Virus record (IMG/VR): IMGVR_UViG_3300025000_000061 | Span: 87,783 to 151,782 of that record | Source: a virus | Direction: 5' to 3' (one strand) | DNA: 64,000 nucleotides | Shown here: positions 406-63,689 of the stretch, in pieces | Layout of the letters: the number at the start of each line of letters is the position of its first letter | Numbering within the stretch: the stretch's first letter is position 1 | The notes under the pieces: generated by a model | What the model was told of the DNA's origin: nothing | Databases searched by the model: none | What the model saw: the letters and a program-made list of their open reading frames with translations, nothing else | Made by a program: the position numbers and the translations under genes

Positions 406-583
406 TCATAATAAAATAACGGTTTTGTCACAATATAGGTAAAATTACGCAATATCGTAATGTATCTGATTTTACCCATAATAATGTCAGCAAACCCTTA
501 TAATACAAGGGTTAGAGAGCATTTTTATACTTAAAATAAAAGTATAAAATAAATATTGTGACAAAAGAAAGATTTTGTTCAAA
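406..583. repeat. Structured intergenic element bounded by two 11-6-11 palindromes
   Basis: 14-bp perfect IR 423-436/553-566; internal hairpins 438-476, 493-513, 523-549. Confidence 0.75.
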
Positions 584-607
584 CTTTAAAGGAAAAAGGA
601 GGAAATT

Positions 608-1150
608 ATGAACAAAGAATACATAAAGTTTTTAAATTTTAGAACAGAATTAATTGAATTATTAGATAAGTATAGATACCAAATATCAGGTACAAATCTT
701 GATGATGGCTCAATGAATATAGAAAATAAAAATGGTATTGCTTATATATTAAGAGATTCTTATTCAGATTACGAAGCATTGGATTTTGACTGGAATATAT
801 TATCTACAGATTATATATTAAATATGTTCCCAGAAGATAATAATTCGCCTATTAAAAATAACAATATTGGTATATTTACTAATAATTATGATAAAGTTTC
901 TATGTTATTTGATGATCTATATAATCAAAATAAAGAAAATGTAAAGAGATTCAGAAAGAGCAAAGAAGAAATAAATTTATTATTAGAAGATGATAGATAT
1001 TTTGTTTGGATTAAACCGATAGATAATTCAAGAGGTCATAGATGTTCAAAAGTTGTTTATATTGATAGGAATTTAACATTAAATGAGTTACAATATAATG
1101 TTATGCCTATTTGTTGTTATTGTAAAAGAGAAGATGTAAAGGTGTTTTAA
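608..1150 (+). CDS. Hypothetical protein
   Basis: 180-aa ORF with AGGAGG RBS. Confidence 0.8.
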   Translation: MNKEYIKFLNFRTELIELLDKYRYQISGTNLDDGSMNIENKNGIAYILRDSYSDYEALDFDWNILSTDYILNMFPEDNNSPIKNNNIGIFTNNYDKVSMLFDDLYNQNKENVKRFRKSKEEINLLLEDDRYFVWIKPIDNSRGHRCSKVVYIDRNLTLNELQYNVMPICCYCKREDVKVF

Positions 1151-1183
1151 ATAAATATAAATAAAAATAAGGAGGAAAATAGT

Positions 1184-1345
1184 ATGGTAATGAAACCTGA
1201 AGAATTTGATAGTTTATATTTATCATTTTTAAATGGTAATGAATTAACTAGAGAGGAAGTTAAAAATTTGTTTGATACTTTTGGAGAATTAATAAATGAG
1301 TATAAACGATTATTGGAAGAATTTAATAAAACCGTAGGAGGGTAA
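1184..1345 (+). CDS. Small hypothetical protein (53 aa, not in ORF track)
   Basis: AAGGAGG RBS, ATG 1184, TAA 1343-1345. Confidence 0.7.
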   Translation: MVMKPEEFDSLYLSFLNGNELTREEVKNLFDTFGELINEYKRLLEEFNKTVGG

Positions 1346-1346
1346 T

Positions 1347-1922
1347 ATGAAAAGAATTGATGTAATGACTGATATTGAAACATTAGGTAAAGATTCTGAT
1401 TCTACAATATTTCAAATATCTGCAATAGCTTTTAATATTGAAAGTGGAGAATACATAGATAAATTTAATATGATTGCTGATATTGAAAAGAATAAAATAA
1501 TAAATGTATCAGGTAGCACAATAAAATGGTGGTTAAATACCGATAAAGAATTATTAACAAAACTACTTAATAATGGAGAATATTCAAGTGAAGAAATACT
1601 TAAACAATTTCATATATGGTTAAATTCATTAAGTGAAGATATGAAGAATGTTTATTTATGGGGTAATGGTATTCTATTTGATAATAAGATGTTACAATGT
1701 CAAATGAAAAATATCAATTTAGATTATCCTATATTTTATAGGAATGATAGAGATATGAGAACATTAGTAGAATTAGCAAGTCATAAGGTAGGGATTCAAA
1801 CAGAAAAGGAATTTAGAGATAAATATAAAAATCCAGATTTAATTGCTCATGATGCTTTTGATGATGTCAAGGGACAAATTGATATTGTTATTAAATGCCA
1901 TAATATATTGATGAAAGGATAA
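1347..1922 (+). CDS. DEDDh 3'-5' exonuclease/exoribonuclease (Rv2179c/ExoVIII-like)
   Basis: DIETLG, WGNG..FD, H.A..D motifs. Confidence 0.85.
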   Translation: MKRIDVMTDIETLGKDSDSTIFQISAIAFNIESGEYIDKFNMIADIEKNKIINVSGSTIKWWLNTDKELLTKLLNNGEYSSEEILKQFHIWLNSLSEDMKNVYLWGNGILFDNKMLQCQMKNINLDYPIFYRNDRDMRTLVELASHKVGIQTEKEFRDKYKNPDLIAHDAFDDVKGQIDIVIKCHNILMKG

Positions 1923-1929
1923 TATAATT

Positions 1930-2151
1930 ATGAACAATTATAAACTTATGGAAGAATATATTCAATGGAGAAAAGATACTGGTAAATTTAGACATGAATT
2001 AAGAGATATAATTGTAAATGATAATGGTGTAATTAAAACAGAGAAGAAGATGGCATGTGTTATAAATACTTCACCTGAAGATTGGAAAGAGTTTTGTGAA
2101 GATAGAGATATAGAATATGAAGGTGAAATGAAATTGTTGGCAATGTGTTAG
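1930..2151 (+). CDS. Hypothetical protein
   Basis: ORF with RBS. Confidence 0.65.
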   Translation: MNNYKLMEEYIQWRKDTGKFRHELRDIIVNDNGVIKTEKKMACVINTSPEDWKEFCEDRDIEYEGEMKLLAMC

Positions 2152-2164
2152 TATGTAGAAAATC

Positions 2165-2233
2165 TTGACAAATTATCAATAGTAATTACTATATGTAGTA
2201 TTAAAAATATATAAAAATACTACATATAGTAAT
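2165..2233 (+). promoter_or_regulatory. SigA-type promoter overlapped by two NrdR-box-like palindromes
   Basis: TTGACA 2165-2170, TACTAT 2187-2192; boxes at 2186-2201 and 2217-2232, 31 bp apart. Confidence 0.55.
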
Positions 2234-2237
2234 AATA

Positions 2238-2265
2238 TCATGATCAAATTCCTCTTTTATATTAA
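2238..2265. repeat. 11-6-11 palindromic site
   Basis: TCATGATCAAA TTCCTC TTTTATATTAA. Confidence 0.6.
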
Positions 2266-2280
2266 CTTGAAAGGAGAATT

Positions 2281-2562: not shown

Positions 2563-2580
2563 AAAGGAGAAAAAATACAT

Positions 2581-2913: not shown

Positions 2914-2932
2914 CAGAATGATAAAATAATAG

Positions 2933-2961
2933 TTGACAGATTGTAAATAAAAATGTATAAT
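2933..2961 (+). promoter_or_regulatory. SigA-type promoter of the ligase-macro-PARP operon
   Basis: TTGACA-17-TATAAT. Confidence 0.8.
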
Positions 2962-2990: not shown

Positions 2991-4319
2991 TTGCAAGAAA
3001 TATTAAGTATTGTTAATCAATTAGCAAGTACATCTAGTCGTTTAGAAAAAGAATCTATTTTAAAGAGAAATCAAGATAATCAATTATTCAAAGACATTCT
3101 TACATTCGTTTATAATACTTTAGAAGTAAAAACAGGTATTAAACGTAAAAAACTTGAGAAGAAAGTAAAATCTAAACCAACAGTAACTATGAATAATTTT
3201 TATGATTTAAGAGATTATTTATCTAATCATAATACTGGTTCAGATGAAATAATTGCAAATATTCAACAATTTTTATCTCAGCAAGAAGATAATATAAAAG
3301 AATTATATATTCAAATTATTCTTCAAGACCTACGTTGTGGTTTAAAAGAAAAAACTATTAATAGTGCCTTTGGATATGAATTTATTTATATCCATAAATT
3401 AGAGAAAGGAGAAGTAGCAGAAGAAAAACATCTTAAATGGCTTAAAAGTAAAGAATTTGGTATATATAGAAAGTTAGATGGGTATAGAAGTGAAATTGAA
3501 GTAGGTAATAATAAGGTTAAGATAATGTCCTCTGGTGGTGAAATATATAAAGAATTAGTCGATATTGAAAAAGTATTATCTGAAACTGATTTACCACATG
3601 GAGTATTTGTTTGCGAATTATTAGCAGTAGATGATAATAATACAATGTCTAGAATAGAAAGATTTAATAAAACTGGTTCTATTTTAAGAAAAGATGGAGA
3701 AAAGCATGGAATAGAAGTTAATATATTTAATTTTATTCCTGATGACGGATTTTATAAAGGTTATCATCCTATGACTTGTAGAGATAGAAAGAATCTAGCA
3801 AAAAAATTGATTGATAAGATTAATTCTCCTTTGATTAAAAATATTGATCCTTTCTATATTGGAAAAGATATTGCTCAAATTGATTATTGGTTTGAAAAAA
3901 TGATGGATCAAGATGATGAGGGAATTATGGTTTTGCCTTTAGATGCAAAATATTATGGTAAAAAATCATATCAACAAATGTTAAAGGTTAAGACAGAAAA
4001 AGAAGCTGATGTGGTTATAGTTGGTTTTGAAAAAGGTGAAAAAGGTAAGGAATTTGAAAATACTTTAGGTAAAATAATTGTAGATTATAAAGGTAAACCA
4101 GCAAAAGTAATGTGTGGTTATAAAGTAAAATATAATCCAGATAAATATGATAATAGGATGGTTAGAGATTATATTTGGAATCATCAAGATGAATTGATGG
4201 GTAAAATTGTTAAGGTAAGATATACAGATGAAAATGTTAATGAAAAAGGTGAATTGGATTTAAGATTATGTAGATTGATTGAGTATAGAGATGATAAGAG
4301 TGAACCGAGTTATAATTAA
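2991..4319 (+). CDS. lig: ATP-dependent DNA ligase
   Basis: KLDGYR adenylation motif, EGIMV, LKVK, C-terminal OB-like region. Confidence 0.92.
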   Translation: MQEILSIVNQLASTSSRLEKESILKRNQDNQLFKDILTFVYNTLEVKTGIKRKKLEKKVKSKPTVTMNNFYDLRDYLSNHNTGSDEIIANIQQFLSQQEDNIKELYIQIILQDLRCGLKEKTINSAFGYEFIYIHKLEKGEVAEEKHLKWLKSKEFGIYRKLDGYRSEIEVGNNKVKIMSSGGEIYKELVDIEKVLSETDLPHGVFVCELLAVDDNNTMSRIERFNKTGSILRKDGEKHGIEVNIFNFIPDDGFYKGYHPMTCRDRKNLAKKLIDKINSPLIKNIDPFYIGKDIAQIDYWFEKMMDQDDEGIMVLPLDAKYYGKKSYQQMLKVKTEKEADVVIVGFEKGEKGKEFENTLGKIIVDYKGKPAKVMCGYKVKYNPDKYDNRMVRDYIWNHQDELMGKIVKVRYTDENVNEKGELDLRLCRLIEYRDDKSEPSYN

Positions 4320-4348
4320 CAATAAATAAATTAAAAGGAGGAAATATT

Positions 4349-4768
4349 ATGATTATTAAAGAAGAACAAAGGGATTTATTTTCAGTACCACATGGTTATT
4401 ATTTTGCTCATTGTATCTCAGGAGATTTTGCATTAGGTGCAGGTATTGCAGTTAAATTTAACGAGTTATATAATATGCGTAAAAAATTAAAAGAAGTCAC
4501 AGATTTTGAATATGATAATTGTGCAATTCTTATTGATAATGTATTTAATCTTGTAACAAAACGAAGATCATTTCATAAACCTACATATGATAGTTTAAAT
4601 GAAGCATTAGTAGATATGATGGAACAAGTTAAAGAATTAGGTGTTGAAAGAATTGCTATGCCTTTTATCGGATGTGGACTAGATAAACTTTCTTGGAGTA
4701 TTGTTAAGGAAATGATTGAAGAAGTATTTGAAGATGTTGATGTTGAAATTTTAGTTTGTTATTTATAA
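4349..4768 (+). CDS. Macrodomain ADP-ribosyl hydrolase, TARG1/Poa1p/DarG-like
   Basis: AHCISGDFALGAGIA, NLVTK, GCGLD motifs. Confidence 0.9.
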   Translation: MIIKEEQRDLFSVPHGYYFAHCISGDFALGAGIAVKFNELYNMRKKLKEVTDFEYDNCAILIDNVFNLVTKRRSFHKPTYDSLNEALVDMMEQVKELGVERIAMPFIGCGLDKLSWSIVKEMIEEVFEDVDVEILVCYL

Positions 4769-4781
4769 GAGAGGTGGATAT

Positions 4782-5996
4782 ATGCAAAATCCATTATATT
4801 TAGTTAAAGTAGAACCAGGAGAAAATAATAATAAATATTACCAAATGCTGGATAACGGCGATGGAAATTTTATTTGTAAATATGGTAGAATTGGCAATTC
4901 AGGTTATCAGACAAAAACTTATCCTATATCTAAATGGGAATCTCAATATAAAAGTAAGATAAAAAAGGGTTATATAGACCAGTCAAGATTAGTTGCGGAA
5001 ACTATTGTTACTCAAAATAAGAAAAAAGAATACCTTGATATTGACAATCCATCTATAGCACAAATTGTAACAAGATTACAATCTATGGCACGACAAGCAA
5101 TTAAGGATAATTATACTATTAATTCTCAGAATGTTACGCAGGTTATGATCAACGAAGCACAGTTAATTTTAAATAATCTAATTGATGCAGATGATATTGA
5201 ATTATTTAATAAAATACTAGTTGATTTATTTAAAACTATCCCTAGAAAAATGGGTAAAGTTAAAGATTATTTAGCAAAAAGTGATAAAGATTTTAGTGAG
5301 ATTATTCAAAGAGAACAAGATTTACTTGATGTAATGAAAGGTCAAGTTGTTCAACAATCTATAGTTAAAGATGAAAATAATGAAGATGATACATATGAAA
5401 TGCCAAATCAAACAATATTAGAAGTATTAGGATTACAATTTGAAGAAATTACTCAAGATGAAAAAGAATTAATTAAGAAAAATCTTGGTGGTATTAGTGA
5501 TAAATTTTATCAAGCATGGAGAGTTATTAATATTAAGACACAAAAGAAATTTAATGAGTTTATACAGAATAATAATATAAAAGAAAATAAATTATTATGG
5601 CATGGATCAAGAAACGAGAATTGGTGGAGTATTATTAATTCAGGATTAGTTTTAAGACCATCTGCTGTAATCACAGGCAAGATGTTTGGATATGGTATTT
5701 ATTTTGCACCTAAAGCAAGAAAGTCATTTGGTTACACTTCTTATCATGGTTCATATTGGGCAGGAGGAAATTCTAATTCTGCATTTATGAGTTTATATGA
5801 TGTAGCATATGGCAAACCTTACGATGTACATTCTTTTGATAGTCAATATCATAATTTTAACTATGAGTTATTACAAAAGTATTGTAAAGATGCTAATTGT
5901 CTACATGCTCATGCTGGAAGTATGCTTAGGAATGATGAGATTATAGTTTATAAAGAAGAACAAACTACTATTAAGTATTTAGTTGAATTGAGGTAA
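4782..5996 (+). CDS. WGR-domain PARP-family ADP-ribosyltransferase
   Basis: N-terminal NNNKYY..YGRIG WGR domain; LLWHGS, GKMFGYGIYFA, KSFGY, NDEIIVY (H-Y-E triad). Confidence 0.9.
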   Translation: MQNPLYLVKVEPGENNNKYYQMLDNGDGNFICKYGRIGNSGYQTKTYPISKWESQYKSKIKKGYIDQSRLVAETIVTQNKKKEYLDIDNPSIAQIVTRLQSMARQAIKDNYTINSQNVTQVMINEAQLILNNLIDADDIELFNKILVDLFKTIPRKMGKVKDYLAKSDKDFSEIIQREQDLLDVMKGQVVQQSIVKDENNEDDTYEMPNQTILEVLGLQFEEITQDEKELIKKNLGGISDKFYQAWRVINIKTQKKFNEFIQNNNIKENKLLWHGSRNENWWSIINSGLVLRPSAVITGKMFGYGIYFAPKARKSFGYTSYHGSYWAGGNSNSAFMSLYDVAYGKPYDVHSFDSQYHNFNYELLQKYCKDANCLHAHAGSMLRNDEIIVYKEEQTTIKYLVELR

Positions 5997-6068: not shown

Positions 6069-6097
6069 TTGACAAATATATAAAATACTAATATAAT
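6069..6097 (+). promoter_or_regulatory. SigA-type promoter of the replication operon
   Basis: TTGACA-17-TATAAT; -35 lies in an 11-bp IR (6029-6039/6062-6072). Confidence 0.8.
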
Positions 6098-19261: not shown

Positions 19262-19290
19262 TTGACATATATCCACCAATCATTTATAAT
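19262..19290 (+). promoter_or_regulatory. SigA-type promoter
   Basis: TTGACA-17-TATAAT. Confidence 0.8.
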
Positions 19291-19373: not shown

Positions 19374-19437
19374 AAACCCTTATAAATCAACACTTTCTAA
19401 TTATCAATATTTGCACAAAATCGATGTTTTGTAACGA
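19374..19437. repeat. Composite element: 23-bp box + 11-6-11 site
   Basis: AAACCCTTATAAATCAACACTTT, 13 nt, TTTGCACAAAA TCGATG TTTTGTAACGA. Confidence 0.7.
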
Positions 19438-23045: not shown

Positions 23046-23423
23046 ATGTTATACACAACATATTTCAGTAAAATGAATAAACTATCTGACAATGTAAAGA
23101 AACTTGCAATCACAAGATTTCCACCAAAATCATTTAATCCAAATAAATATCCTAACACTTACGTAGTTAAAGATTTAGCACCTTATGCAGAAATACTTTT
23201 AGATTATAAAAAAGATAATGATTGGGGTAGGTATATTGAAAGGTTTAATTTGCAGATGCAAAAAGACGAAAAAATGATTGTTTGTTTAGATAAATTATAT
23301 TTAAAACTATCACAAGGTAAAGATTATGCTTTAATATGTTATGAAAAAGATTATATTCATTGTCATAGATACCTGATTGCAAAATATTTAGAAAGTAAAG
23401 GGATTAAGTGGAAGGAAATTTAA
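23046..23423 (+). CDS. DUF488 family protein
   Basis: YTTYFS, LAP, LICYEK..CHR..IA. Confidence 0.8.
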   Translation: MLYTTYFSKMNKLSDNVKKLAITRFPPKSFNPNKYPNTYVVKDLAPYAEILLDYKKDNDWGRYIERFNLQMQKDEKMIVCLDKLYLKLSQGKDYALICYEKDYIHCHRYLIAKYLESKGIKWKEI

Positions 23424-23448
23424 AAAATACCATATTACGAAAATACGG

Positions 23449-23512
23449 AAAACATTATAAATAAAGGGTTTGTAAGCATCAAAATCGTGTCCAAACCGAC
23501 ATTTTGACATGA
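23449..23512. repeat. Composite element: 23-bp box + 11-6-11 site
   Basis: AAAACATTATAAATAAAGGGTTT, 13 nt, TCGTGTCCAAA CCGACA TTTTGACATGA. Confidence 0.7.
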
Positions 23513-23667
23513 TTTATTAGAAAAGTTGGTAAATAATACATAAAATAAATACTCTCTTCCGAAGGATTGTATACTATTACATATTATGCTTCTCTCACCA
23601 ACTCCTCTAATGGAATTATAACCATATTAGGAAGAAAGTATTCTGGTAAATATAAGGAGATGATATT

Positions 23668-31664: not shown

Positions 31665-31693
31665 TTGACATTTTATTAATAGAATGATAAAAT
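31665..31693 (+). promoter_or_regulatory. SigA-type promoter upstream of the RNR unit
   Basis: TTGACA-17-TAAAAT with extended TG. Confidence 0.75.
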
Positions 31694-40944: not shown

Positions 40945-41008
40945 AAACCCAGTAATATCAAGGGCTTCTGAATATCAAAATCATAATAAATTATAGGTTT
41001 TATCTTAA
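40945..41008. repeat. Composite element: 23-bp box + 11-6-11 site
   Basis: AAACCCAGTAATATCAAGGGCTT, 13 nt, TCATAATAAAT TATAGG TTTTATCTTAA. Confidence 0.7.
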
Positions 41009-43133: not shown

Positions 43134-43365
43134 TTAATAGAAGTATCATTTTATTATAATATATAAAGGAGTAATTTATTATGCGTATAGTAAAATTTGA
43201 AGGTTGGATTATTTTCGATGAAGATGAATGTAATCATGGGGAAAATATAATTGCTCAAATTGACCATGAATTATTTAATGTAGATGGTGCTATTGAATGG
43301 GATTTAAGAGAAATTACTAATAAAAAGATAGAATATGAAAGTGATTAATATAAAGGAGAATTAAT

Positions 43366-43566
43366 ATGAGTAGTAAACCACTTTTAGAATTAATAACTTG
43401 CAATTCAGGTGATTGGAATGTTCTAAGAGTAAATCTAGGTGAAAATTTTGAACGTCAAGGTCACTCTCTATCAAAATGGGATTGGATTGATTTATTAAAA
43501 TTATTAGACTATAAAGTTGAAGAAAGAGAGATTAGTGACGAAGATATGGAATATGGAAATTATTAA
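43366..43566 (+). CDS. Hypothetical protein
   Basis: ORF with RBS. Confidence 0.65.
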   Translation: MSSKPLLELITCNSGDWNVLRVNLGENFERQGHSLSKWDWIDLLKLLDYKVEEREISDEDMEYGNY

Positions 43567-43791
43567 TATAAAATAAGAGAATAAAGGAGTAATATAATTA
43601 TGAATCTAAACAAAGATGAAATAAATATCATAATGAATCTCATAAGTGAAAAAATTGTAGATATGAAAAGTAGACAAAATGAAATAGATTTAAATAAATT
43701 TGAGAAAATAATATTATTAGGTGTAAAAATAGAAAATGAATGGTTAAAATTAAATTCATCAAATTAAAAATTAAAGGAGTAATTTAATCAC

Positions 43792-44304
43792 ATGGCAGAA
43801 TACACAATTGAAATTACTACATATTGTCCACATAATTGTAGTTACTGTTCAACTAATGCAACAGAAAACGGAATACATATTGATATAGAAACAATTAAAC
43901 AATTCTTAAAATCTAACAATATACAATCAACAGATAGAATTAATATATCAGGTGGAGAACCATTATCACATCCTAAATTTTATGAAATATTACAATTATG
44001 CAAACAATTAACTTCTGATGTTTGGGTATATACTAATGAATTAACTCAAATCAGATATAATACTTCTGTAATTAATGAAATACAAATTGAAGCAAATGTT
44101 TGTTTAACTCCAGGAGAAGATGTATATATACCTAAAAATGCTCATAAGGTTCATTTGCTTCAATTCGTACCTACAGGAAGAGGAAAAAATATAAAACCTA
44201 TAAATATGAAACTATCAGGTTCGGATTGTAAAAATTGCAATCATAAAGTTTTACAAGCAAATGGCAAAATTGTAGATGCACCTTGTAAGAAAGATTATAA
44301 CTAA
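43792..44304 (+). CDS. Short radical SAM protein
   Basis: CPHNCSYC, SGGEPL, YTN. Confidence 0.85.
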   Translation: MAEYTIEITTYCPHNCSYCSTNATENGIHIDIETIKQFLKSNNIQSTDRINISGGEPLSHPKFYEILQLCKQLTSDVWVYTNELTQIRYNTSVINEIQIEANVCLTPGEDVYIPKNAHKVHLLQFVPTGRGKNIKPINMKLSGSDCKNCNHKVLQANGKIVDAPCKKDYN

Positions 44305-44312
44305 AAGAAAGG

Positions 44313-44810
44313 TTGATTAATATTAACAATAATATTAAAGATAATTTTATTATTCAAGTTAATCCTATTATTGATTATGCAATGAGAGGTTTATGTAGAA
44401 AACCTTATTACAATCATCCTAAAGGTTGCCCTAATTTTAGAAAAAGAGAAGATTGTCCTCCATTTGCACCTTTATTTGATAAGTATATAGATATGTTAAA
44501 ACCTATTTATGCTATATATAATATATTTGATTTTAAATCTCATATAGATAAAATGAAATTAAAACATCCTAATTGGTCAGAACATCAATTAAAATGTGTA
44601 TTATATTGGCAAGGTTCAGCAAGAAAACAATTAAAAGAAAAATGTAAAATATTTATAAAAGAACATGAAGGATTAGGATATGAAATAATCACTTGTCCAG
44701 AAGCAATGGGAGTTAATTTAACTGAAACAATGAAGAATGTAGGAATTATTTTAGAATGGCCTCCTGTTAATATAACATATCAAATTGCTATAGCAGGAAT
44801 TAAGAAGTAA
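44313..44810 (+). CDS. DUF2284-like metal-binding protein
   Basis: LC..GCPNF..CPP, PEAMGVN. Confidence 0.65.
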   Translation: MININNNIKDNFIIQVNPIIDYAMRGLCRKPYYNHPKGCPNFRKREDCPPFAPLFDKYIDMLKPIYAIYNIFDFKSHIDKMKLKHPNWSEHQLKCVLYWQGSARKQLKEKCKIFIKEHEGLGYEIITCPEAMGVNLTETMKNVGIILEWPPVNITYQIAIAGIKK

Positions 44811-44824
44811 ATGAGGTAATTAAT

Positions 44825-45016
44825 ATGATTAAATGCAACACATGTATTAACAAAACAGAAATAAATGAAGCTGAATTATATTGCATGGATACTTATTATG
44901 GTTATGGGCAAATATTTGATTGGTGTACTGCAAATAATACTTCTTTAGATTATATGGAACACTTAGGTTGTGATTTTAATAAATGTAAAGAATATAAAGA
45001 GAAAGGAAGTGATTAA
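44825..45016 (+). CDS. Small Cys-rich protein
   Basis: CNTC.N..C..C..C. Confidence 0.65.
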   Translation: MIKCNTCINKTEINEAELYCMDTYYGYGQIFDWCTANNTSLDYMEHLGCDFNKCKEYKEKGSD

Positions 45017-45236
45017 TTATCTTAAAACTATCAGAATTAATACAATGGATGGAATATGAATTTGAAAATGGAAATAGAGTCAAAGCATCTAAATTATATA
45101 GAATATTTTGTAAATATGCAAAAATGAGATTTAAAGATGCAGATGAATATCGTTTGAGAAATTATAAAAAATATAATTGGAATAGATAAAAGATCATAAA
45201 AATTTAGTTTTATTCAATAAATAAAGGAGAATTTTT

Positions 45237-45464
45237 ATGGAAGAATTAAAATTTAAAATAACAAAATTATCTCAAGAAAAGAGAATAGATGGAGATGTAA
45301 TTATAGATACAATATGTATCAATGATGACACTGATATTCGCATAATTGTATCTAATCGTTTATATAATGATAGATATTTTGTAAAGAATAAATTAATTAA
45401 TGAATATAATCGTTTAATAGAATTGAAAAAATCATATGATATTAATATTGGCGATATTATTTAA
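45237..45464 (+). CDS. Hypothetical protein
   Basis: ORF with RBS. Confidence 0.65.
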   Translation: MEELKFKITKLSQEKRIDGDVIIDTICINDDTDIRIIVSNRLYNDRYFVKNKLINEYNRLIELKKSYDINIGDII

Positions 45465-45707
45465 ACTAAGGAGAATTATATGGGAATAAGATCAGATTAT
45501 AAAAGATATAGGTATGAATATTATGGAGGTTATTGTAATAAAGTAAAAAATTTAAATTTAGAACCTATTTTTTTTGTGAATTTTCAGATGCAATAGATAT
45601 TTTATTTCAAGAAGAATTAACAAAAAAACAAATTATGGAAAGACTAATTAGTATAACTAAATTTATTAATTATATTAAAAAATAAAATTATAAAAGGAGG
45701 ACTTACC

Positions 45708-47954
45708 TTGTCTACAACTAAAAACTTAATAAATATCAATAATCAAAATAAAGTTTTAATTACAATTAATCATAATCAAACTGAGCAACAAACACAATCT
45801 ATTAAAGTAGATTCTCAACATCATATTCATATTCTCGATAGGTCAGGTTCGATGTCAGGAAGCATTAATAATTTAATTGAAAATGTTAAATTAGCAATTA
45901 AACATATGTCTGATAATGATTATGTCAGCATTATATGGTTTAGTGGACATGATGAATGTAAAGTATTGATTAAAGGTGCTAAAAAAGATGAAAGTTTATT
46001 TAAACTATTAGACTCTATTAAATCTACTGTTGGATTAACTTGTTTCTCTACTCCCATTGCTGAAACAAATACAATTATTGAAGATTTATTTAATATTTGT
46101 AATAGTATTAGTGTTAATCTATTTACAGATGGAGAAGTAGTTGTACCTTGGACAGAAAGAGAAGAAGAAAATAAAATATTTGCAGAAATTGCTAAATTTA
46201 AAGATAAGATATTAGCATTTAATACAATTGGTTATGGATATTATTACAATCAAGATTTATTAAAACGTATTTCAGCAGAATCTACTTTTGGAAATGCAAT
46301 TCATTCTAATCATATCAATGAGTACGTTTCTATCTTTGACCATAATTATGAGAGAGTTAATGATTTAATTTTAGAATCTGTTGAAATTGATATTATCAAT
46401 GAAACAGAAAACGTAGATATTATATATCTTAATAGTAATTCTTCCAAATATACGCAAAATACATTAAAATTGAATAGATTAGATAAAAAGAAAAATCAAA
46501 TATTTTTATTATCTGATAAGGACTTTACTTTTAAATACAATGATGAAATTATTGATACATCAAAATTACCTATCACAAAAATAAACAAAAATATTCAACC
46601 AACAATTAATAATTTCTTTTATACATATGCTTACGAATTATTTTACATAAACAAAAGACAAGAAGCATTAAATATCATTGCAAATAATTTACATGATAAA
46701 TATTTAGTAGATACACAATTAAATATTTTCACAAATGATGAAGTAGGGCAATATACTAAAGAATTAAAAAATAGTATATTTAAACCTAAAACCAGATATA
46801 AAACAGGTTTATCTCCTGACAACTACTTACCTAAAGACGATACTTTTTGTATTATGGATTTACTCAAGATTTTATCTGAAAGTAATAATTATTATATTCC
46901 TTCTAAAAACTATCAAAGAATTGGAACAAAAACAGAAGATAAATTTAATTTGTTTGTTAAAAATGAAGATGAAAGTAAAACACCTATTAATACTTTAACT
47001 TACAATAAGAAATTTTTAAATGTAAGTTTACCATTAACTATTTATGGGAAAGTAAAAATTAATGCAAAAATTGCTAGTAAACATAATTTAGATAAAGAAA
47101 TCGATAGTAAAATATTTAGAACACATACTTTAATTAAAGATGGTAATTTAAACATGCAAGAAATTGAATGTGTTTTAGATGAAGAAACGTATAATAAATT
47201 AATTGAAATTCAAAATGAAAATAATATTGAATTTATTCAGTTAGTTAATTCAAATGATAATGCATATAAAGTTAATATAATACTGAATAAATTACCAGTA
47301 ATAAATCGCATGTATGTCAATGAAAGCAGTAATATTGAAAATATTTTTAATAGTATTATTAGAATTAATGAATTAGAAATACAGCAAAAAGTATTAAATT
47401 TTTATATTAAAGAAATTATTAATAAACATAATATTATTGAAGGTAAATTTAAAGATTTTTCTGCTGAACAAATTGAAGTTTTACAACAACATGGATTAAA
47501 TAAAAATTTAGAATATGTAGGTGTAGATAATCAAAAAGCAGAATCAAAAGATTATTATTTTGCAAGATGTTTAGAATTTAATCTAAAAGGATATAGTAGT
47601 ATACCTAGTGTTAATGATGTTCTTAAAAAAGTAGAAACTAAAAAGAAATTAAATGATGTTGGTAAATACATGTATGATTATATTAATATGTTGAATATTG
47701 GTTTAACTAAATTAGGGTACAATGATTTAAATAACTTAACTGAAAAACATAAAGATGTATTACAACAACAATTAGAAATTGTTAAAAAAGAATTATTTAC
47801 AGAAAGAACAAAAATTAATTGTATGAAAATTGCTGTTGTTTTAACTGGTTCTTGGTTTAACAATTTAGAAAAAGACGATAAGGGAAATTGGTATTATAAG
47901 AAAGATGATAAGATTTTAAATATTAAAAGTGAAAAAGTTAAAGTTGAATATTAA
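45708..47954 (+). CDS. von Willebrand factor A (vWA) domain protein
   Basis: ILDRSGSM MIDAS, LFTDG, TIGYG. Confidence 0.85.
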   Translation: MSTTKNLININNQNKVLITINHNQTEQQTQSIKVDSQHHIHILDRSGSMSGSINNLIENVKLAIKHMSDNDYVSIIWFSGHDECKVLIKGAKKDESLFKLLDSIKSTVGLTCFSTPIAETNTIIEDLFNICNSISVNLFTDGEVVVPWTEREEENKIFAEIAKFKDKILAFNTIGYGYYYNQDLLKRISAESTFGNAIHSNHINEYVSIFDHNYERVNDLILESVEIDIINETENVDIIYLNSNSSKYTQNTLKLNRLDKKKNQIFLLSDKDFTFKYNDEIIDTSKLPITKINKNIQPTINNFFYTYAYELFYINKRQEALNIIANNLHDKYLVDTQLNIFTNDEVGQYTKELKNSIFKPKTRYKTGLSPDNYLPKDDTFCIMDLLKILSESNNYYIPSKNYQRIGTKTEDKFNLFVKNEDESKTPINTLTYNKKFLNVSLPLTIYGKVKINAKIASKHNLDKEIDSKIFRTHTLIKDGNLNMQEIECVLDEETYNKLIEIQNENNIEFIQLVNSNDNAYKVNIILNKLPVINRMYVNESSNIENIFNSIIRINELEIQQKVLNFYIKEIINKHNIIEGKFKDFSAEQIEVLQQHGLNKNLEYVGVDNQKAESKDYYFARCLEFNLKGYSSIPSVNDVLKKVETKKKLNDVGKYMYDYINMLNIGLTKLGYNDLNNLTEKHKDVLQQQLEIVKKELFTERTKINCMKIAVVLTGSWFNNLEKDDKGNWYYKKDDKILNIKSEKVKVEY

Positions 47955-48051
47955 AATATAAAACTAAATATAGTAATAATTATTATTAATTTATAGTAGG
48001 TAATAGTTATTACTATATTAAACAAATAAAATACAATAAAAGTAAAGGAGA

Positions 48052-49005
48052 GTGGATTCTATAAATACAAATCTAAAAACAAGATGCTTAACTTCTCAAC
48101 AATACTCATTAGAAGATTTAATTAATCTATGCAAACTAACAGATAAAATAAAAAATATTGCGTCAACAAAAGAAGGATTATTATACCTTAAATCACTTTT
48201 ACCACATAAACGTGCAATGCTTTACTTCAAGCAACCTAGTACACGTACATTTTTATCGTTTCAAAATGCATGTTACATACTAGGTATATCATGTTCTGAA
48301 ATACGTGATACTTCTACCTCCTCTGAAATGAAAGGTGAGACAGAATTAGATGCGGTAAAAACATTCTCACAATATGCAGATTTAATTATTATGAGACATC
48401 CATCAAGTGACTTTATTTATGAGATATCTGATAATTTACCTAATGATATGAGAATAATTAATGCAGGTTCAGGGACTAATGAGCACCCAACTCAGGCATT
48501 GTTAGACTTCTACACTATTTATAAATATGGGTTATTAGAAGGTAAGAAAGTTGCATTTATTGGTGATTTATTGCGAGGTAGAACTGTTAGATCACTTGCA
48601 TTACTATTAAATAAAGTTAGTGGTACTAAATTATATTTTGTTGCACCAGATAAATATCAAATCAAAAATGATATATTAAATCAATTAAATGTTAATTATG
48701 AAATTGCAAATGATATTGAAAAAGTATTACCTGAAATGGATGTTATCTATATGACTAGACTTCAAGATGAATATGGTCAAATTAATGGAGAAGATTTTAT
48801 TGATACAAGTAGATACTCAATTAATAGTAATAATATAAATATACTAAAAGAAGATGCAATTATACTTCATCCACTACCTAGAAGAAATGAAATTGCAATT
48901 GAGATTGATAAGAATAAACGTGCTAAGTATTGGGAGCAAACAAATAATGGGATGTATGTTCGTGTTGCTTTGATTAACAGTATGTTTAATGTATGTGGAT
49001 TGTAA
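48052..49005 (+). CDS. pyrB: Aspartate carbamoyltransferase catalytic subunit
   Basis: PSTRT, KGE, INAGSG.NEHPTQALLD, MTRLQ, LHPLPR; real start may be ATA 48061. Confidence 0.93.
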   Translation: MDSINTNLKTRCLTSQQYSLEDLINLCKLTDKIKNIASTKEGLLYLKSLLPHKRAMLYFKQPSTRTFLSFQNACYILGISCSEIRDTSTSSEMKGETELDAVKTFSQYADLIIMRHPSSDFIYEISDNLPNDMRIINAGSGTNEHPTQALLDFYTIYKYGLLEGKKVAFIGDLLRGRTVRSLALLLNKVSGTKLYFVAPDKYQIKNDILNQLNVNYEIANDIEKVLPEMDVIYMTRLQDEYGQINGEDFIDTSRYSINSNNINILKEDAIILHPLPRRNEIAIEIDKNKRAKYWEQTNNGMYVRVALINSMFNVCGL

Positions 49006-51208: not shown

Positions 51209-51237
51209 TTGACAAAATACAAAAATAATAGTAAAAT
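51209..51237 (+). promoter_or_regulatory. SigA-type promoter upstream of the thyA-folA unit
   Basis: TTGACA-17-TAAAAT. Confidence 0.75.
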
Positions 51238-55953: not shown

Positions 55954-57471
55954 TTAATAAAATTGTATATCTAATTCAGCTTCATTGTCATCAATTCTAG
56001 TCCATACAATTTTTTCAATTATTGATTTATAGAATTTATTTTTTTCTTCAGCAGTAATATCTTCTTTATTTAGATTGTCTAATACTTTATTAATTGTAAA
56101 AATTTTATCATCAATAGATTTAATCTGATCAACATTTAAAGAATTCTCTAATTCATCTATCTCAACATCAACCTTTTCAATTTCATTTTCCCATTTAGAT
56201 TTTCTATCTAACCATTGTTCTCTAGTATAGTCACCTAATTCATATGCTTCATTAACTTTTTCTAAAGCTGTCTTAAATTTATTTAATTGTTTGCTTTTTT
56301 GTTTTATTATTAATTCTATTTTTTTATTGTCTTTATTTATTTCTGTAGGCATATTATTAATTAAATTATCACGATAATTAATTATTGCTAATAAAACCTC
56401 TTTCGATATTTCTTCAATATTACCAGAACGATTAGGACACTTATTGCCAAAAGCATCAATATACCAACAAGGTTTCATATAAATTTTCTCAGAATTTTTT
56501 TTCTTTAAAAAAGTTATAGAATATCCACATATACTACACTTAATAATTCCAGAAAATTCAAATACACCTTGCTTTGCTCTTGAAGGTGTTTTATTTCTTT
56601 GTTTAAATAATTCTATAATTCTATTATGTTCTTCTATGGTTTTTACTGGTAAATGGCAATTCTCAACAACAATCCACCTATCTCTAGAGTAATTAATTAT
56701 CTTTTCTCCTTTTCGAGTATTGCCTTTAGTTTTATTGCTGATTATTTTTCCCAAATGAGTTTCACTTAAAAGTAATCTTTGCACAACAACACCATACCAT
56801 TTACTACCACGTTCATAAGGTGTAGGAATACCTAATTTATTTAATTCAATTGCAACATTTTCAACTGTTAATAATTTATCAAGAAATAGAGACTTAATTA
56901 AATTATAAGTCGATAATTTTTCTTCATCTATAATTAAACCTTTTGTTTGAGGATTATATTTATATGGGATAGGTGCTGTTCCATTTGTCCAATTGCCCAT
57001 CTTGCTTCCAATTTTCTTACCACGCAACATTCTTCTTTTGATCATCTTATATTCCTGGCGACTCATAAAGGAAATTAATTCCAGAAATGTTTCATCATCT
57101 TCATTTTCTAAATTATAAACTTTATTAGGAGTAATAATTAATGTACCAGACTTTTTAAATATTCTTTTAATTTTTCCAGAATCTTCCTCTGAACCTCTCG
57201 ATAATCTGTCATAATCTACAACTAATACAGCGTCAAATAAATCATTTTCTATATCTTCAAGTAATCTAATCATCTCAGGTCTACCATCAATACTATCACC
57301 TGAAGCAACTTCTTTATAAATTACATATCTTAAATTATGCATTTTAGCAAAATCTGTTAATAATGAATTATGTTTTTCTAATGTTTCGTCTGTTTCTTCC
57401 AGACCTTTCGCCCTTGATTTACGCAAATATATAGCAACATCTTTTATTATTTCTGATAATTTATTTTCCAT
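55954..57471 (-). CDS. Large serine recombinase (integrase, SprA/SpoIVCA-like)
   Basis: YLRKS catalytic Ser, SG..RP, DRLSR, recombinase domain, CSICG Zn ribbon, coiled coil. Confidence 0.96.
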   Translation of the reverse strand: MENKLSEIIKDVAIYLRKSRAKGLEETDETLEKHNSLLTDFAKMHNLRYVIYKEVASGDSIDGRPEMIRLLEDIENDLFDAVLVVDYDRLSRGSEEDSGKIKRIFKKSGTLIITPNKVYNLENEDDETFLELISFMSRQEYKMIKRRMLRGKKIGSKMGNWTNGTAPIPYKYNPQTKGLIIDEEKLSTYNLIKSLFLDKLLTVENVAIELNKLGIPTPYERGSKWYGVVVQRLLLSETHLGKIISNKTKGNTRKGEKIINYSRDRWIVVENCHLPVKTIEEHNRIIELFKQRNKTPSRAKQGVFEFSGIIKCSICGYSITFLKKKNSEKIYMKPCWYIDAFGNKCPNRSGNIEEISKEVLLAIINYRDNLINNMPTEINKDNKKIELIIKQKSKQLNKFKTALEKVNEAYELGDYTREQWLDRKSKWENEIEKVDVEIDELENSLNVDQIKSIDDKIFTINKVLDNLNKEDITAEEKNKFYKSIIEKIVWTRIDDNEAELDIQFY

Positions 57472-57690
57472 GATATTACCACCTTTAAAATAATGTTATG
57501 GAGAATAGTAATAGATATAGTATTCTACATGGAAAGTAAATTATCCTTTTAGAACTAAAAAATTTATTAAAATTGATTTAAAATTATTGAATTAATATGT
57601 ATACTTTATATGGAAATCTGATATAATGAATATTAGGATAGTGAAATTGAAAGATTTAATTAGATTTGATGAATAAGGAGAGTGAAATTA

Positions 57691-58914
57691 ATGGGTATTG
57701 CTGAGAAGGAGATTGGAATGGAAAATGAAGTTAATACTACAATTAATACTGAAATTAAGAGAAACAAAATAGGTATATTTGTAGGTGAAAAAGATATTCG
57801 TAAAGATTATGAGATTAACAATGTAATTACAACAATTCGTAATGACCAAATATTTTCTTACAATTTTAATTTACCAATTTCAACTATTTGTAATTTTATG
57901 GATTCAGATATACTTCAATATATGCCTGAGATACAAAGAGGGAAAAAATTGCTAAGAGGTATTGAAAGTCCACTGATTAATACAACTAAAACGAAAGAAA
58001 TTGCGGAATGTATCATGAAAGATGAATTTTTTGGAGGAACATTAAGTTTTGTTATTATTGAATCATACCTTGATAAACCAGATGCTAAGTTTGAATATGA
58101 TGAAGATAATAATACCATAAACTGTAATCTACCTATATTTTGTGTTGACGGAATGCACAGGGTGTCAAGTGCAAGAATTATAAATGATTTATGGCATAAA
58201 GTTAAACGTAATAAAGATGGTATGATTGATCCTGAAAAATATGAATTTCCCATATCACTTATTATATGTTCGATGGATGATGCTAAACGTATTTTTTCAC
58301 AAAGCACTTTAAATTTAAAAATTAGCAAAGTTAGAAGCGAAGTGTTATCTATAGGTACGTATAAAAATATGATCACAAATGAAATAATTAAAAATAGTGA
58401 CTTACGTAATAAAGTAGAAAAGTATGTTTCAAATATCAAAAATACAAACAATATAGTAACTTATTCCGTTTTAAGTACACAAATAGATAATCAATTCAAA
58501 CCTAAAACTAAACTTGAAAGTGAAGAAATTGCTTCATATTTAACCGACTTTATGAATTTTTTAGTTTACTTATTCCCCTACAGCATGGGTGAGATGGATA
58601 TTACCGAAAGAAAACTTGGTAGAGAAAGAGATTATAGTATTGAACTTTTAATGTGGCAAGGGTATATCGCAGTTGCTAAAGCATTATATGGAGATGAAAA
58701 TTGGAAAGAAAAACTTAGAAAATTGAAACAATTAATAAGAATAAAAAATTGGGAAGGGTTCTTTTTAGATAGAACAAATCCAATTTGGAATCATGTTAAA
58801 AAAGGTGATGGAAAATTAGTAAATAGTAGTGCAACACAAAGTTATGTAAGAAAAGTATTTGTTATGTTTATTACTAACGAGAAAGAATTTTTTGAAATAG
58901 CAGATAAAATTTGA
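57691..58914 (+). CDS. DndB/DGQHR (ParB-like) domain protein
   Basis: IQRG, CVDGMHR, IF...L motifs. Confidence 0.75.
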   Translation: MGIAEKEIGMENEVNTTINTEIKRNKIGIFVGEKDIRKDYEINNVITTIRNDQIFSYNFNLPISTICNFMDSDILQYMPEIQRGKKLLRGIESPLINTTKTKEIAECIMKDEFFGGTLSFVIIESYLDKPDAKFEYDEDNNTINCNLPIFCVDGMHRVSSARIINDLWHKVKRNKDGMIDPEKYEFPISLIICSMDDAKRIFSQSTLNLKISKVRSEVLSIGTYKNMITNEIIKNSDLRNKVEKYVSNIKNTNNIVTYSVLSTQIDNQFKPKTKLESEEIASYLTDFMNFLVYLFPYSMGEMDITERKLGRERDYSIELLMWQGYIAVAKALYGDENWKEKLRKLKQLIRIKNWEGFFLDRTNPIWNHVKKGDGKLVNSSATQSYVRKVFVMFITNEKEFFEIADKI

Positions 58915-60838: not shown

Positions 60839-60912
60839 AAACCCTTGATTTACAACACTTTGTTGACTATTAATTTCTGCTAAATCATAACCAAACAACA
60901 ATTTTGTGTAGA
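60839..60912. repeat. Composite element: 23-bp box + 11-6-11 site
   Basis: AAACCCTTGATTTACAACACTTT, 23 nt, TCATAACCAAA CAACAA TTTTGTGTAGA. Confidence 0.65.
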
Positions 60913-61178: not shown

Positions 61179-61259
61179 AAATTGAATTTATAAGTGTCAA
61201 GTATTTTCACCTTATCCCCTATCGACAAAAGAAGTGGTGGGGAAGTGGAAGAGAGGACG

Positions 61260-61631: not shown

Positions 61632-61648
61632 ATTAAAACCTCCAATTA

Positions 61649-62443
61649 TTATTTATTATTAGTAATAATACGATCAAGCATTGTGAATAGTAACCATGCT
61701 TGAACTGGTTCTGCTAATTTCTTTTTCCAATCTTCTGCATTATTAATTAGACCTTTATTAGCAAGATTATCTAAACTTTTAATTCCTGATTCTTCCATCC
61801 ATTTTTCGATTGCCATATCAATTAACTCCTCCTTATCAATTACTTTATCTACTTTAATACCTAAAAAATCTCCAATACCTTGAGCAATAGCAAATGCCAT
61901 CTTATCTTGAAATTCAGGATCATTTAACATTTTTTCTTCTTCTGGATTTGAAATAAATAGCATTTCTATAAGTGTAGCAGGACATTTTGCATATTTTATT
62001 ACATAGAATTTTGCTTCTTTATCAGGATCACCATCAGATAAATCTTCTCTATATATTAAATTAGGAAATGTTGCTTTAACTTTTGAATGAATTTTAGTTG
62101 CTAAAATATCAGAATAATTCTGACCAGGAGTTGTAAAAATCTCAAATCCCCTAGCGGTAGAATTATTACAAGAGTTACAATGCAGACTTACAAAAACATC
62201 TGGATTATAACCATTAGCAATTTGCATACGTTTAACTAAATCTTGACTTAAATTAGAAGGCCAAGATACTTTATCACTATCTCTTGTAAAACATACATCT
62301 ATACCAGCAGATTTTAGATAATTTGCTACTTTAAATCCAACAGACATATTAATATTTTTCTCTTGTGTTCCATTTATTCCCAAAGCGCCTGAATCATAAC
62401 CACCATGCCCATAGTCTATGCAAGCGAGTTTATTCATAAACAA
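61649..62443 (-). CDS. Endolysin, N-acetylmuramoyl-L-alanine amidase (Amidase_3)
   Basis: DYGHGG.DSGA, EK, VSLHCNS, LIEMLFISN. Confidence 0.95.
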   Translation of the reverse strand: MFMNKLACIDYGHGGYDSGALGINGTQEKNINMSVGFKVANYLKSAGIDVCFTRDSDKVSWPSNLSQDLVKRMQIANGYNPDVFVSLHCNSCNNSTARGFEIFTTPGQNYSDILATKIHSKVKATFPNLIYREDLSDGDPDKEAKFYVIKYAKCPATLIEMLFISNPEEEKMLNDPEFQDKMAFAIAQGIGDFLGIKVDKVIDKEELIDMAIEKWMEESGIKSLDNLANKGLINNAEDWKKKLAEPVQAWLLFTMLDRIITNNK

Positions 62444-62461
62444 ACATCTCCCTATATTTAA

Positions 62462-62755
62462 TTAAATTTTATTATTATAATCCTTTTCCGTTTGAATATC
62501 ATTACTTTGTGTAGAAACATTTAAATCACTTAATTTACTTTTATATTCAGCATATTGATTCAATACTTCAACTCCGTTAATTCCAACAAAACCAAATAAA
62601 AACGCTTGAATAATATTTACTAAATCTGAAATATTTTTATCAATGTAATGTGAGTATAGAGTATAAAGAGTTACTGTAATTAGAAGTATTGCTAGAGTTG
62701 AAATTTTCTTTTCTTGTATACTTAGTATATTTTTCAGATATTCTATTGTAATCAC
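62462..62755 (-). CDS. Small membrane protein, holin-like
   Basis: Two TM segments in the lysis cassette. Confidence 0.6.
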   Translation of the reverse strand: MITIEYLKNILSIQEKKISTLAILLITVTLYTLYSHYIDKNISDLVNIIQAFLFGFVGINGVEVLNQYAEYKSKLSDLNVSTQSNDIQTEKDYNNKI

Positions 62756-62777
62756 CTCATGTTGGTTGCTATAAAGT

Positions 62778-63242
62778 TTAATTAATTAGTTTACTTGATT
62801 GATGTATAACCGTATAAATAGCCACACCAGAACTTATTAAAGTTGTAATTACAGCACCTATAGTAATTATCGTCTGTGTACGAATTTTACTTTTGCCATC
62901 AATCTTTGTAGTTTCAATTTTAACATCATTATTTTGCTTATTTATAATCAAACTATTAAGACTTCCTAATATTAAATTATTGTTTGTGGTAGATTTGGCA
63001 TCCATCAATTTTAAATCAGCACTTATTTCTTCTTGATTTTTAATAACGTATTTCATTGCTTCTTGTTGTTGAACCATACCTACTTCGATCTTTGACAGTC
63101 TCTCATCATGGTTAATTATTTTTTCATGAATATTATCAAATTTTTCCTTAATCAATTCTTCATCCACTGACATACCACATCCTTCCTTAATATTAATAAA
63201 TTCCTCCGTTTCGCTCTTAAAATTATTTTCACAATTATTCAT
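62778..63242 (-). CDS. XhlA/BhlA-like coiled-coil membrane protein of the lysis cassette (alternative start 63173)
   Basis: HDERLSKIE coiled coil plus C-terminal TM. Confidence 0.65.
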   Translation of the reverse strand: MNNCENNFKSETEEFINIKEGCGMSVDEELIKEKFDNIHEKIINHDERLSKIEVGMVQQQEAMKYVIKNQEEISADLKLMDAKSTTNNNLILGSLNSLIINKQNNDVKIETTKIDGKSKIRTQTIITIGAVITTLISSGVAIYTVIHQSSKLIN

Positions 63243-63527
63243 AAAACACTTTACAACTCCTCTCTTATGTTATATACTTATGTCACACAATAATACTCTT
63301 ACTATTATTGCTGTTATGAGGTATGGTGTATGAGAGTGGTACACCATACCTTTCAAATACATAATAAATTAAATCAAACACAATTCAATAAAATATTAAC
63401 TTTAGAATCTCATAGACCATCTGCGAGAGCCATTGAGCACCAATGATGTATTTATGGGGTTCTAATTATTGTTTATTATTTGTATAGATATATAAACCTC
63501 CTTAAAAACATATTATCAAATTTATTT

Positions 63528-63568
63528 AATAAAAAGAGAAGTAGAGCATAAATACTTCTCTTTTTATT
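63528..63568. terminator. Bidirectional-type terminator hairpin
   Basis: 16-bp IR AATAAAAAGAGAAGTA/TACTTCTCTTTTTATT. Confidence 0.7.
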
Positions 63569-63661
63569 TTATTATTTTTACTTTATACCCTAATTTCATG
63601 TACAAAATACTACAATAATCTACATTTTACGACATAATTTATCCAATATTTGACATAAAAA

Positions 63662-63689
63662 TCATGATAAAAGGTTTGTTTCATCATGA
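63662..63689. repeat. Near-perfect 11-6-11 palindromic site
   Basis: TCATGATAAAA GGTTTG TTTCATCATGA (10/11 symmetric). Confidence 0.7.

Follow-up and report, generated by a model that had tools for sequence, protein, structure and literature searches.

Dispersed 28-bp palindromes in an SPbeta-like phage contig as candidate operators of a phage regulator

Introduction

The last 64 kb of the IMG/VR virus record IMGVR_UViG_3300025000_000061 (this stretch is hereafter ‘the window’, and the whole record, which is linear and 151,782 bp long, ‘the contig’) contain scattered 28-bp palindromes, each made up of two inverted 11-bp arms around a 6-bp centre, and some of them are preceded by a 23-bp box. 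This arrangement raises the question of what such sites do. An earlier note on this DNA proposed that they are core sites of a tyrosine recombinase that delimit mobile gene cassettes, in the manner of pdif sites or integrons, and offered as an alternative that they are operators of a recombinase-fold repressor such as MrpR/YopR. The contig is approximately 82% complete (CheckV) with a GC content of 24%, and contigs identical or nearly identical to it originate from groundwater metagenomes. Judged by its gene content, it is an SPbeta-like phage: blastp against the open reading frames (ORFs) of SPbeta identified homologues of SprA, YorI, YorJ, YorK, YorL and YosS, and adjacent homologues of YopQ (contig 45810–47183) and YopR/MrpR (contig 47187–48251) are found outside the window. 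Lysogeny under arbitrium control is studied with SPbeta-like phages as the model. In the present analysis, we found that the palindromes are a real family of sites, and on balance we favor the view that they are operators of a symmetric, probably dimeric phage regulator, most likely from the sroE–sroF (yopQ–yopR) repression module.

Results and Discussion

The palindromes are a real family of sites

The core of each site is an 11-6-11 palindrome of 28 bp (34 bp with flanks), with the half-site aaaTYnTGAYAAAA. We trained a two-half-site weight matrix on 10 clear copies, called sites at scores of 14 or higher and used Markov shuffles as the null model; a whole-genome scan of this kind against a shuffled background had been proposed in the earlier note. 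The scan returned 25 sites in the whole contig against 0.47 expected, and the 6-bp spacer alone was enriched, as spacers of 3–5 and 7–9 bp gave 0–1 sites. Eight of these sites lie in the window (positions 406, 556, 2238, 19410, 23485, 40981, 60885 and 63662; Table 1) with scores of 17.0–28.4, compared with 0.2 sites in first-order Markov shuffles of the window, and four of them (406, 2238, 60885 and 63662) were outside the training set of the matrix. The matrix-free pattern A[CT][AG]AAA-N6-TTT[CT][AG]T was found 16 times in the contig at N6, where 4.1 copies are expected, and 2–6 times at other spacers.

The observation in the earlier note was therefore borne out in part. It had listed 12 sites in the window, of which the eight named above are true members, while those at 43132, 45191, 49916 and 50793 are AT-rich look-alikes with scores of −14 to +5. 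The half-site consensus that it gave was too strict, matching site 63662 alone when up to three mismatches are allowed, although the family itself is real by the weight matrix. Its remark that no site occurs in the 6.5–19.2 kb block agrees with our scan, in which nothing scored 8 or higher between 2238 and 19410, and its statement that all 6-bp spacers differ can be extended to the whole contig, where the 25 sites have 25 different central 6-mers.

By our own count, the GC content of these centres is approximately 44%, against 24% for the genome. The inner A-tract and T-tract of the core are placed one helical turn apart around the variable centre. Arm complementarity was 5.28 of 10 positions within a site and 5.42 between sites (P = 0.78); tested within this genome, the variable inner arm positions showed no covariation, and C–A mismatches between the arms are common. 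Because the arms of one site do not co-vary, each half-site matches the consensus independently, which points to a symmetric protein on duplex DNA rather than to a hairpin.

The motif is shared by SPbeta-like phages

When SPbeta was searched for enriched palindromes without a preset motif, ATAAAA-N6-TTTTAT turned up 13 times, where 0.32 copies are expected. The inner motif at N6 was also counted in a set of phage genomes, and gave 14 copies in SPbeta (1.9 expected), seven in the 50 kb of phi3T (0.68 expected), 33 in the complete 164-kb genome G001, whose YonO is 52% identical to that of SPbeta (2.0 expected), and five in the relative L012 (0.48 expected), with none in SPP1 (0.23 expected) or phi105 (0.38 expected). 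In SPbeta, phi3T, G001 and L012, many of the elements directly precede the ribosome-binding sites of early genes and, in SPbeta, also those of the late operon; the distance to the Shine–Dalgarno (SD) sequence in G001 is 0–20 nt. Judging from these counts, the inner motif A[CT][AG]AAA-N6-TTT[CT][AG]T is a family common to the SPbeta-like group. Because the motif is shared across these phages, and because a box followed after 13 nt by the element also occurs in G001, the sites of the contig can be regarded as a local, longer version of the SPbeta-group element.

The 23-bp box and the NrdR-like boxes

All five boxes that the earlier note had described in the window are real, and its gaps of 41, 13, 13, 13 and 23 nt between box and core are correct (Table 1). 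The contig contains 12 boxes, nine of which lie exactly 13 nt before a core, and the same box–linker–core unit with fixed 13-nt spacing is found in G001 and in G004, a relative whose MrpR is 75% identical. The box is a near-palindrome that is present in both orientations, and most copies are predicted to fold at −6 to −14 kcal/mol. In G001 and relatives with 34% GC, a run of six or seven T residues comes after it, as in a terminator, and the one copy in SPbeta (68521) carries a stem-loop annotation. The stem of the box shows weak covariation (72.9% paired versus 71.0% in shuffles, with 58 of 500 shuffles as high). We read the box as a terminator-like hairpin that moves together with the core as one unit, with a protein site as the alternative. 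A box also occurs in the divergent gap at a signal peptidase S26 gene (contig 23360–23875, L005:3360–3875), a minus-strand gene amid plus-strand early genes, where the −10 of a TTGACA-17-TATAAA promoter lies inside it.

Tandem 16-bp palindromes, ATACTAnATATnTAGTAT, with a period of 31–32 bp were found at window 2186–2232 and at contig 36851/36883, 64675/64707, 66635, 73238, 81747/81778 and 83172, and four or five of the pairs end 5 nt short of a core. We take these 16-mers to fit the NrdR-box consensus at 14 of 16 positions. The genes behind them are not nrd genes, and no phage-encoded NrdR was found in the contig, where the sole match is the ATP cone of the ribonucleotide reductase. Given such boxes and no NrdR of the phage’s own, host NrdR may gate these promoters, and the boxes beside the sites hint at phage gene blocks that are wired to the nucleotide state of the host. 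At core 2238, the −10-like TATAGT of the promoter at 2201–2230 would let transcription begin with the first bases of the core. The reductase gene itself (window 31956–34268), which encodes a B12-dependent (class II) enzyme with an N-terminal ATP cone, has no NrdR-like boxes that we could see before it.

Placement of the sites and a proposed mechanism

The composite sites fill the entire intergenic gap: the upstream gene ends 45–82 nt before the core, the box lies between, and the next start codon follows 12–28 nt past the core. Weaker sites overlap the stop codon of the upstream gene. An SD sequence with a start codon occurs within 50 nt of 52% of the contig sites but only 8.6% of random positions, and the corresponding figures for the elements of the contig and G001 are 52–55% and 8–9%. 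Six sites, in the contig and G004, are centred 58.5–59.5 bp upstream of the predicted starts of promoters with a TTGACA or TTGATA (−35-like) box. Box 19374 and core 19410 would fall in a leader, because a perfect sigma-A-type promoter lies 84 nt upstream of that box (Table 1).

Based on this placement, we propose that the sites act at the 5′ start of gene blocks and are arranged in one of two ways. In the first, the site would follow a module that resembles a promoter or a terminator, either the box at 13 nt or the tandem NrdR-like boxes at 5 nt, and it would stand just before the SD sequence and cover approximately the first 30 transcribed bases. In the second, its centre would lie approximately 59 bp upstream of a consensus sigma-A promoter. 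Occupancy of the site would block initiation or early elongation, and such a block would silence or time early and accessory gene blocks. Both the identity of the binder and its action as a repressor rather than an activator are what we infer from the comparisons below.

SroE-like and MrpR-like proteins as candidate binders

The two proteins of the sroE–sroF module are the obvious candidates, and of these we consider the DndB-like SroE/YopQ, with two paralogues in the contig, the most likely binder by analogy, in preference to the MrpR/SroF-like protein. SroE (YopQ) is reported to be a second repressor, and how it fits into the induction model has been called still unclear (bioRxiv 10.1101/2025.11.27.690993). 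SPbeta YopQ belongs to the DndB family (PF14072, 58.6 bits), and DndB binds spaced palindromes, TACG-N10-CGTA, with 26–33-nt footprints at −72 to −40 and across the transcription start site (PMC4507180). Of the two proteins, YopQ also shows the stronger conservation between phi3T and SPbeta (E 1e-82, as against 2e-33 for YopR, according to the notes of the record). These points together favor the SroE-like proteins. The DndB operators of the Salmonella dnd system resemble the present sites in being spaced inverted repeats upstream of and across a promoter, with a footprint of approximately 26–33 nt (here predicted to be approximately 30 bp); they differ in half-site sequence and in copy number, with two copies as against approximately 25 per genome here.

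More specifically, and only tentatively, the A[CT][AG]AAA-N6-TTT[CT][AG]T palindromes (11-6-11 in this contig) could be so far undescribed operators of SroE/YopQ acting as a DndB-like second master repressor, conserved across a range that has SPbeta and phi3T of Bacillus at one end and uncultured groundwater phages with 24% GC at the other, and standing in the composites beside an SroF box or host NrdR boxes. The palindromes are strongly enriched in every SPbeta-like genome examined and are distinct from the SroF boxes; they thereby offer a concrete DNA target for the question of the second repressor, one that is testable in a phage for which genetics and antibodies are available, namely SPbeta or phi3T.

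Four points weigh against an operator of this module. First, the box and core motifs are common to the contig and G001, yet both candidate proteins are just 25–27% identical there. Second, the steady placement just upstream of ribosome-binding sites, with start codons mostly 13–33 nt away, is not demanded of a simple operator. Third, most of the approximately 17 strongest sigma-A promoters have no site nearby, which would be odd for a master repressor. Fourth, the two YopQ-like proteins of the contig fall below the Pfam threshold for DndB (blastp against YopQ gave E 2e-19 and 1e-6; both belong to phrog_5732). With regard to the third point, approximately 17 near-perfect sigma-A promoters were found on the plus strand of the contig. 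Perfect or near-perfect TTGACA-17-TATAAT promoters at window 2933–2961, 6069–6097, 19262–19290, 31665–31693 and 51209–51237 have in common the spacer motif AGAATAcTAA, or AGAATGA before TAAAAT, and these promoters form a separate class that is mostly without palindromes.

Another possibility, which we regard as unlikely, is that the MrpR/SroF-like recombinase-fold repressor alone uses the sites as its operators, which would make them the local counterpart of SPBRE and Phi3TRE. A member of the MrpR family is encoded in the contig: the protein matches SPbeta MrpR (blastp E 5e-17) and Pfam MrpR_N_CB (PF22822, 52.9 bits), with a precomputed match to MrpR_C_cat (PF22823), and MrpR/YopR are the only solved structures that it matches by sequence. 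Its AlphaFold2 model (pLDDT 85.5) matches DNA-bound phi3T SroF with TM-scores of 0.73/0.80, and the fold matches 8a0a and 9rd5, so that, on the model, the protein is surely a DNA binder. Proteins of this family recognize long repeated boxes that are rich in A-tracts and scattered over many positions, intergenic or in promoters, as the sites are here; Phi3TRE, the repeated and dispersed operator of SroF in phi3T (bioRxiv 10.1101/2025.11.27.690993), is 26 bp long and thus close to 28 bp, and SPBRE is itself palindromic. In addition, no other long repeated motif that would fit as the operator of this protein was found in the contig, where among 11-mers ribosome-binding sites alone stand out. SPBRE-like motifs in the spacers of the contig’s promoters were considered for this role and rejected, with only four weak, non-palindromic matches.

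However, SPbeta and phi3T carry the palindromes in addition to SPBRE and Phi3TRE, and this coexistence indicates that the palindrome family is a separate element. SPBRE is approximately 17 bp long, lies inside the spacer of TAGACA-17-TATAAT promoters and differs in motif from the palindrome family; all ten MrpR peaks obtained by chromatin affinity precipitation sequencing (ChAP-seq) in SPbeta hold SPBRE (PMC10516654), and SPBRE-less palindromes of SPbeta (e.g., those at 2628, 44416, 113663 and 132746) are not among the peaks. In phi3T, eight copies of Phi3TRE occur in 50 kb as a separate family, two of them abutting a palindrome, and in SPbeta too the known box sometimes directly adjoins one. 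No match to SPBRE or Phi3TRE was found among the sites of the contig. Moreover, Phi3TRE is an asymmetric 26-mer, of which the SroF monomer reads 24 bp, including the central 6 bp (bioRxiv 10.1101/2025.11.27.690993), whereas the present sites have symmetric halves and a centre that is not conserved; for this reason they are probably read by a protein other than the MrpR-like one. The alternative put forward in the earlier note was thus right in kind, as the yopQ–yopR (sroE–sroF) pair is encoded and phages of this kind have dispersed repeated operators, and doubtful as to the specific binder, as the same palindromes stand beside proven MrpR/SroF boxes in SPbeta and phi3T.

Other explanations

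Apart from operators of the sroE–sroF module, the composite units of box hairpin, core and ribosome-binding site could be cassettes that resemble PeSLs (promoter-early stem-loops), the composite terminator/promoter motifs of T4-like phages (PMC4122927). Such a unit would consist of a terminator-like stem-loop and a phage-specific promoter or activator site, would spread by homologous recombination and would help to shuffle small genes. We find this doubtful, somewhat more so than binding by the MrpR-like protein alone. A spacing of exactly 13 nt, kept by nine copies here and seen again in G004 and G001, fits such a unit, as do the predicted folding of the box, the T-run behind it in G001 and the stem-loop annotation in SPbeta. 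As in PeSLs, short composite regulatory motifs are repeated between small ORFs in plastic regions, and homology can be confined to the motif: a 99-bp homology island between the contig and G004 corresponds to exactly one composite element, between genes without detectable homology. Unlike PeSLs, the core shows no evident sigma-A-type promoter. A sigma-A promoter inside the core or box was rejected, as −35/−10 scans by offset showed no pair that is consistent across copies, a good upstream −35 is present at only 4 of 22 boxes, and any −10-like hexamer in the right arm has A or G as its second base, which is what a palindrome predicts. The weak covariation of the box stem also speaks against a PeSL-like unit. 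Furthermore, the ends of homology blocks lie no closer to the sites than to other intergenic regions (median distance of 308 versus 371 nt; block end within 60 nt at 21% versus 25%) in the one genome pair compared, the contig and G004, at the resolution of blastn.

Two other sources of phage-specific transcription were rejected. YonO uses one start site, upstream of yonK, and no element is present there; no phage sigma factor was found in the contig.

It is improbable that the element acts in the mRNA leader, as a short hairpin or an A/U-rich translational enhancer 5′ of the SD sequence, or that it is bound by a host factor. Its closeness to ribosome-binding sites would suit a role in the leader, as would an identical 20-mer, TTATTCAAACTTTAAGGAGG, that is found at contig 7806 (L004) upstream of a gene and at SPbeta 129310 (L003) upstream of yosX. 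This 20-mer also resembles the T7 gene 10 leader. However, neither outer nor inner arm positions co-vary and C–A mismatches are frequent, so that an RNA hairpin was rejected, and an inverted repeat would make no sense for a protein that binds single-stranded RNA. The best palindromes (contig 63606, 75870, 111267 and 151444) do not adjoin ribosome-binding sites, and the distance to the SD sequence is variable, as seen in G001. No copy of the motif occurs in the B. subtilis phages SPP1 and phi105, which speaks against a host factor with a general role.

Finally, the cassette recombination proposed in the earlier note, in which a tyrosine recombinase would excise and insert gene cassettes at the sites, is largely refuted and appears highly improbable. 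The sites do share with Xer dif/pdif and integron attC the 11-6-11 arrangement of inverted arms, with inner ends better conserved as in Xer dif, and they are intergenic in a highly mosaic genome. However, Xer, Cre and lambda Int exchange strands only between sites whose overlap regions match, and 25 different central 6-mers are therefore incompatible with strand exchange between the sites. No match to Pfam Phage_integrase (PF00589) was found in the window, in agreement with the earlier note, or elsewhere in the approximately 82% complete contig, where the note had suggested looking for a tyrosine recombinase; the only recombinase-fold protein is the MrpR homologue. Aligned to SPbeta MrpR (Table 3 of PMC10516654), this protein has D193 at the Lys position, T286 at His II and Y289/Y290 at the Arg II position, and thus lacks equivalents of all three; E169 and Y349 are present, and R158 is close to where Arg I would be. 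MrpR itself shows no recombination in vitro. The large serine recombinase of the window (55954–57471) was rejected as the enzyme of these sites, as large serine recombinases use one attP/attB pair and not approximately 25 palindromes.

The breakpoints of gene gain and loss, which the cassette reading would place at the sites, are not enriched there either. The contig and G004 form a mosaic of 39 blastn blocks, with at least 78 block ends in 87 kb that contains only 19 sites, and the distances given above show no enrichment. Near-identical contigs (L041–L044, 99.6–100% identical to the contig; L010 and L011, 98.8% and 100% identical to L009, a G004-type relative) offered a sole informative junction, in L043 at 44087, which is far from any site. 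The presence of the same palindrome family in SPbeta also speaks against recombination at the sites, and their orientation to genes and ribosome-binding sites, like that of regulatory elements, separates them from dif and attC. An integron-like cassette system in a phage was an attractive idea and is now without support.

Features of the window and neighboring genes

The coordinates of the sites, boxes and related features in the window are collected in Table 1.

Table 1. Palindromic cores, boxes and related features in the 64-kb window (‘.’, strand not assigned).
Feature	Position	Strand	Score	Remarks	Basis
Core palindrome	406..433	.	26.3	Without a box 13 nt upstream	Weight matrix
Core palindrome	556..583	+	27.5	Start codon of 180-aa ORF (608) 24 nt downstream of core	Weight matrix
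Core palindrome	2238..2265	+	19.1	Start codon (2281) 15 nt downstream of core	Weight matrix
Core palindrome	19410..19437	+	28.4		Weight matrix
Core palindrome	23485..23512	+	27.0	Arms match at 9/11	Weight matrix
Core palindrome	40981..41008	+	17.2	Followed by ribosome-binding site and ATG	Weight matrix
Core palindrome	60885..60912	.	25.0	Centre ~59 bp upstream of start site predicted from TTGACA box	Weight matrix
Core palindrome	63662..63689	.	17.0	Arms match at 10/11; upstream of minus-strand late or lysis block	Weight matrix
23-bp box, AAACCCTT-N7-AAGGGTTA	492..514	+		41 nt before core 556	
23-bp box	19374..19396	-		Orientation opposite to that of most copies; 13 nt before core 19410	
23-bp box	23449..23471	+		13 nt before core 23485	
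23-bp box	40945..40967	-		Inverted type; 13 nt before core 40981	
23-bp box	60839..60861	+		23 nt before core 60885; within minus-strand lysis region	
Sigma-A-type promoter, perfect TTGACA-17-TATAAT	19262..19290	+		84 nt upstream of box 19374	Promoter scan
Tandem NrdR-box-like 16-mers	2186..2232	+		2186–2201 and 2217–2232, 31-bp period; -10-like TATAGT; pair ends 5 nt before core 2238	Promoter scan: TTAAAA-18-TATAGT, 2201–2230
Second YopQ/SroE-like gene	57682..58914	+		410 aa; candidate binder	blastp vs SPbeta YopQ E 1e-6; phrog_5732 E 1e-40

A small perfect palindrome, ATTACG-caatat-CGTAAT, lies at window 444–461, between cores 406 and 556, and at 63531–63569, shortly before core 63662, a hairpin stands between an A-run and a T-run, in the manner of a bidirectional terminator.

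The gene content includes the alpha subunit of DNA polymerase III, a RecD2-like helicase and a DHH/RecJ-like protein, together with an ATP-dependent DNA ligase, a WGR-domain poly(ADP-ribose) polymerase (PARP) and the class II ribonucleotide reductase described above. The ligase and the WGR-PARP form one block (window 2991–5996) behind a consensus promoter, with a 139-aa ORF (4349–4768) between them; a PARP is unusual for a phage. The large serine recombinase gene is followed by a minus-strand block with methylase, holin and amidase genes.

Outside the window, genes for a MazF-like protein (291 aa) and an AgrB homologue are followed by the yopQ–yopR pair (contig 43180–48251, L006:3180–8251). 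This block occupies the place of the SPbeta arbitrium genes, and the gene order is kept in the relatives L009 and L012; an agr-type peptide signal may stand in place of arbitrium in this phage. The 11-mer CCATATTTATC is found at contig 40159, 40297 and 40435, at intervals of exactly 138 bp, and this spacing suggests a repeat of 46 residues in a protein.

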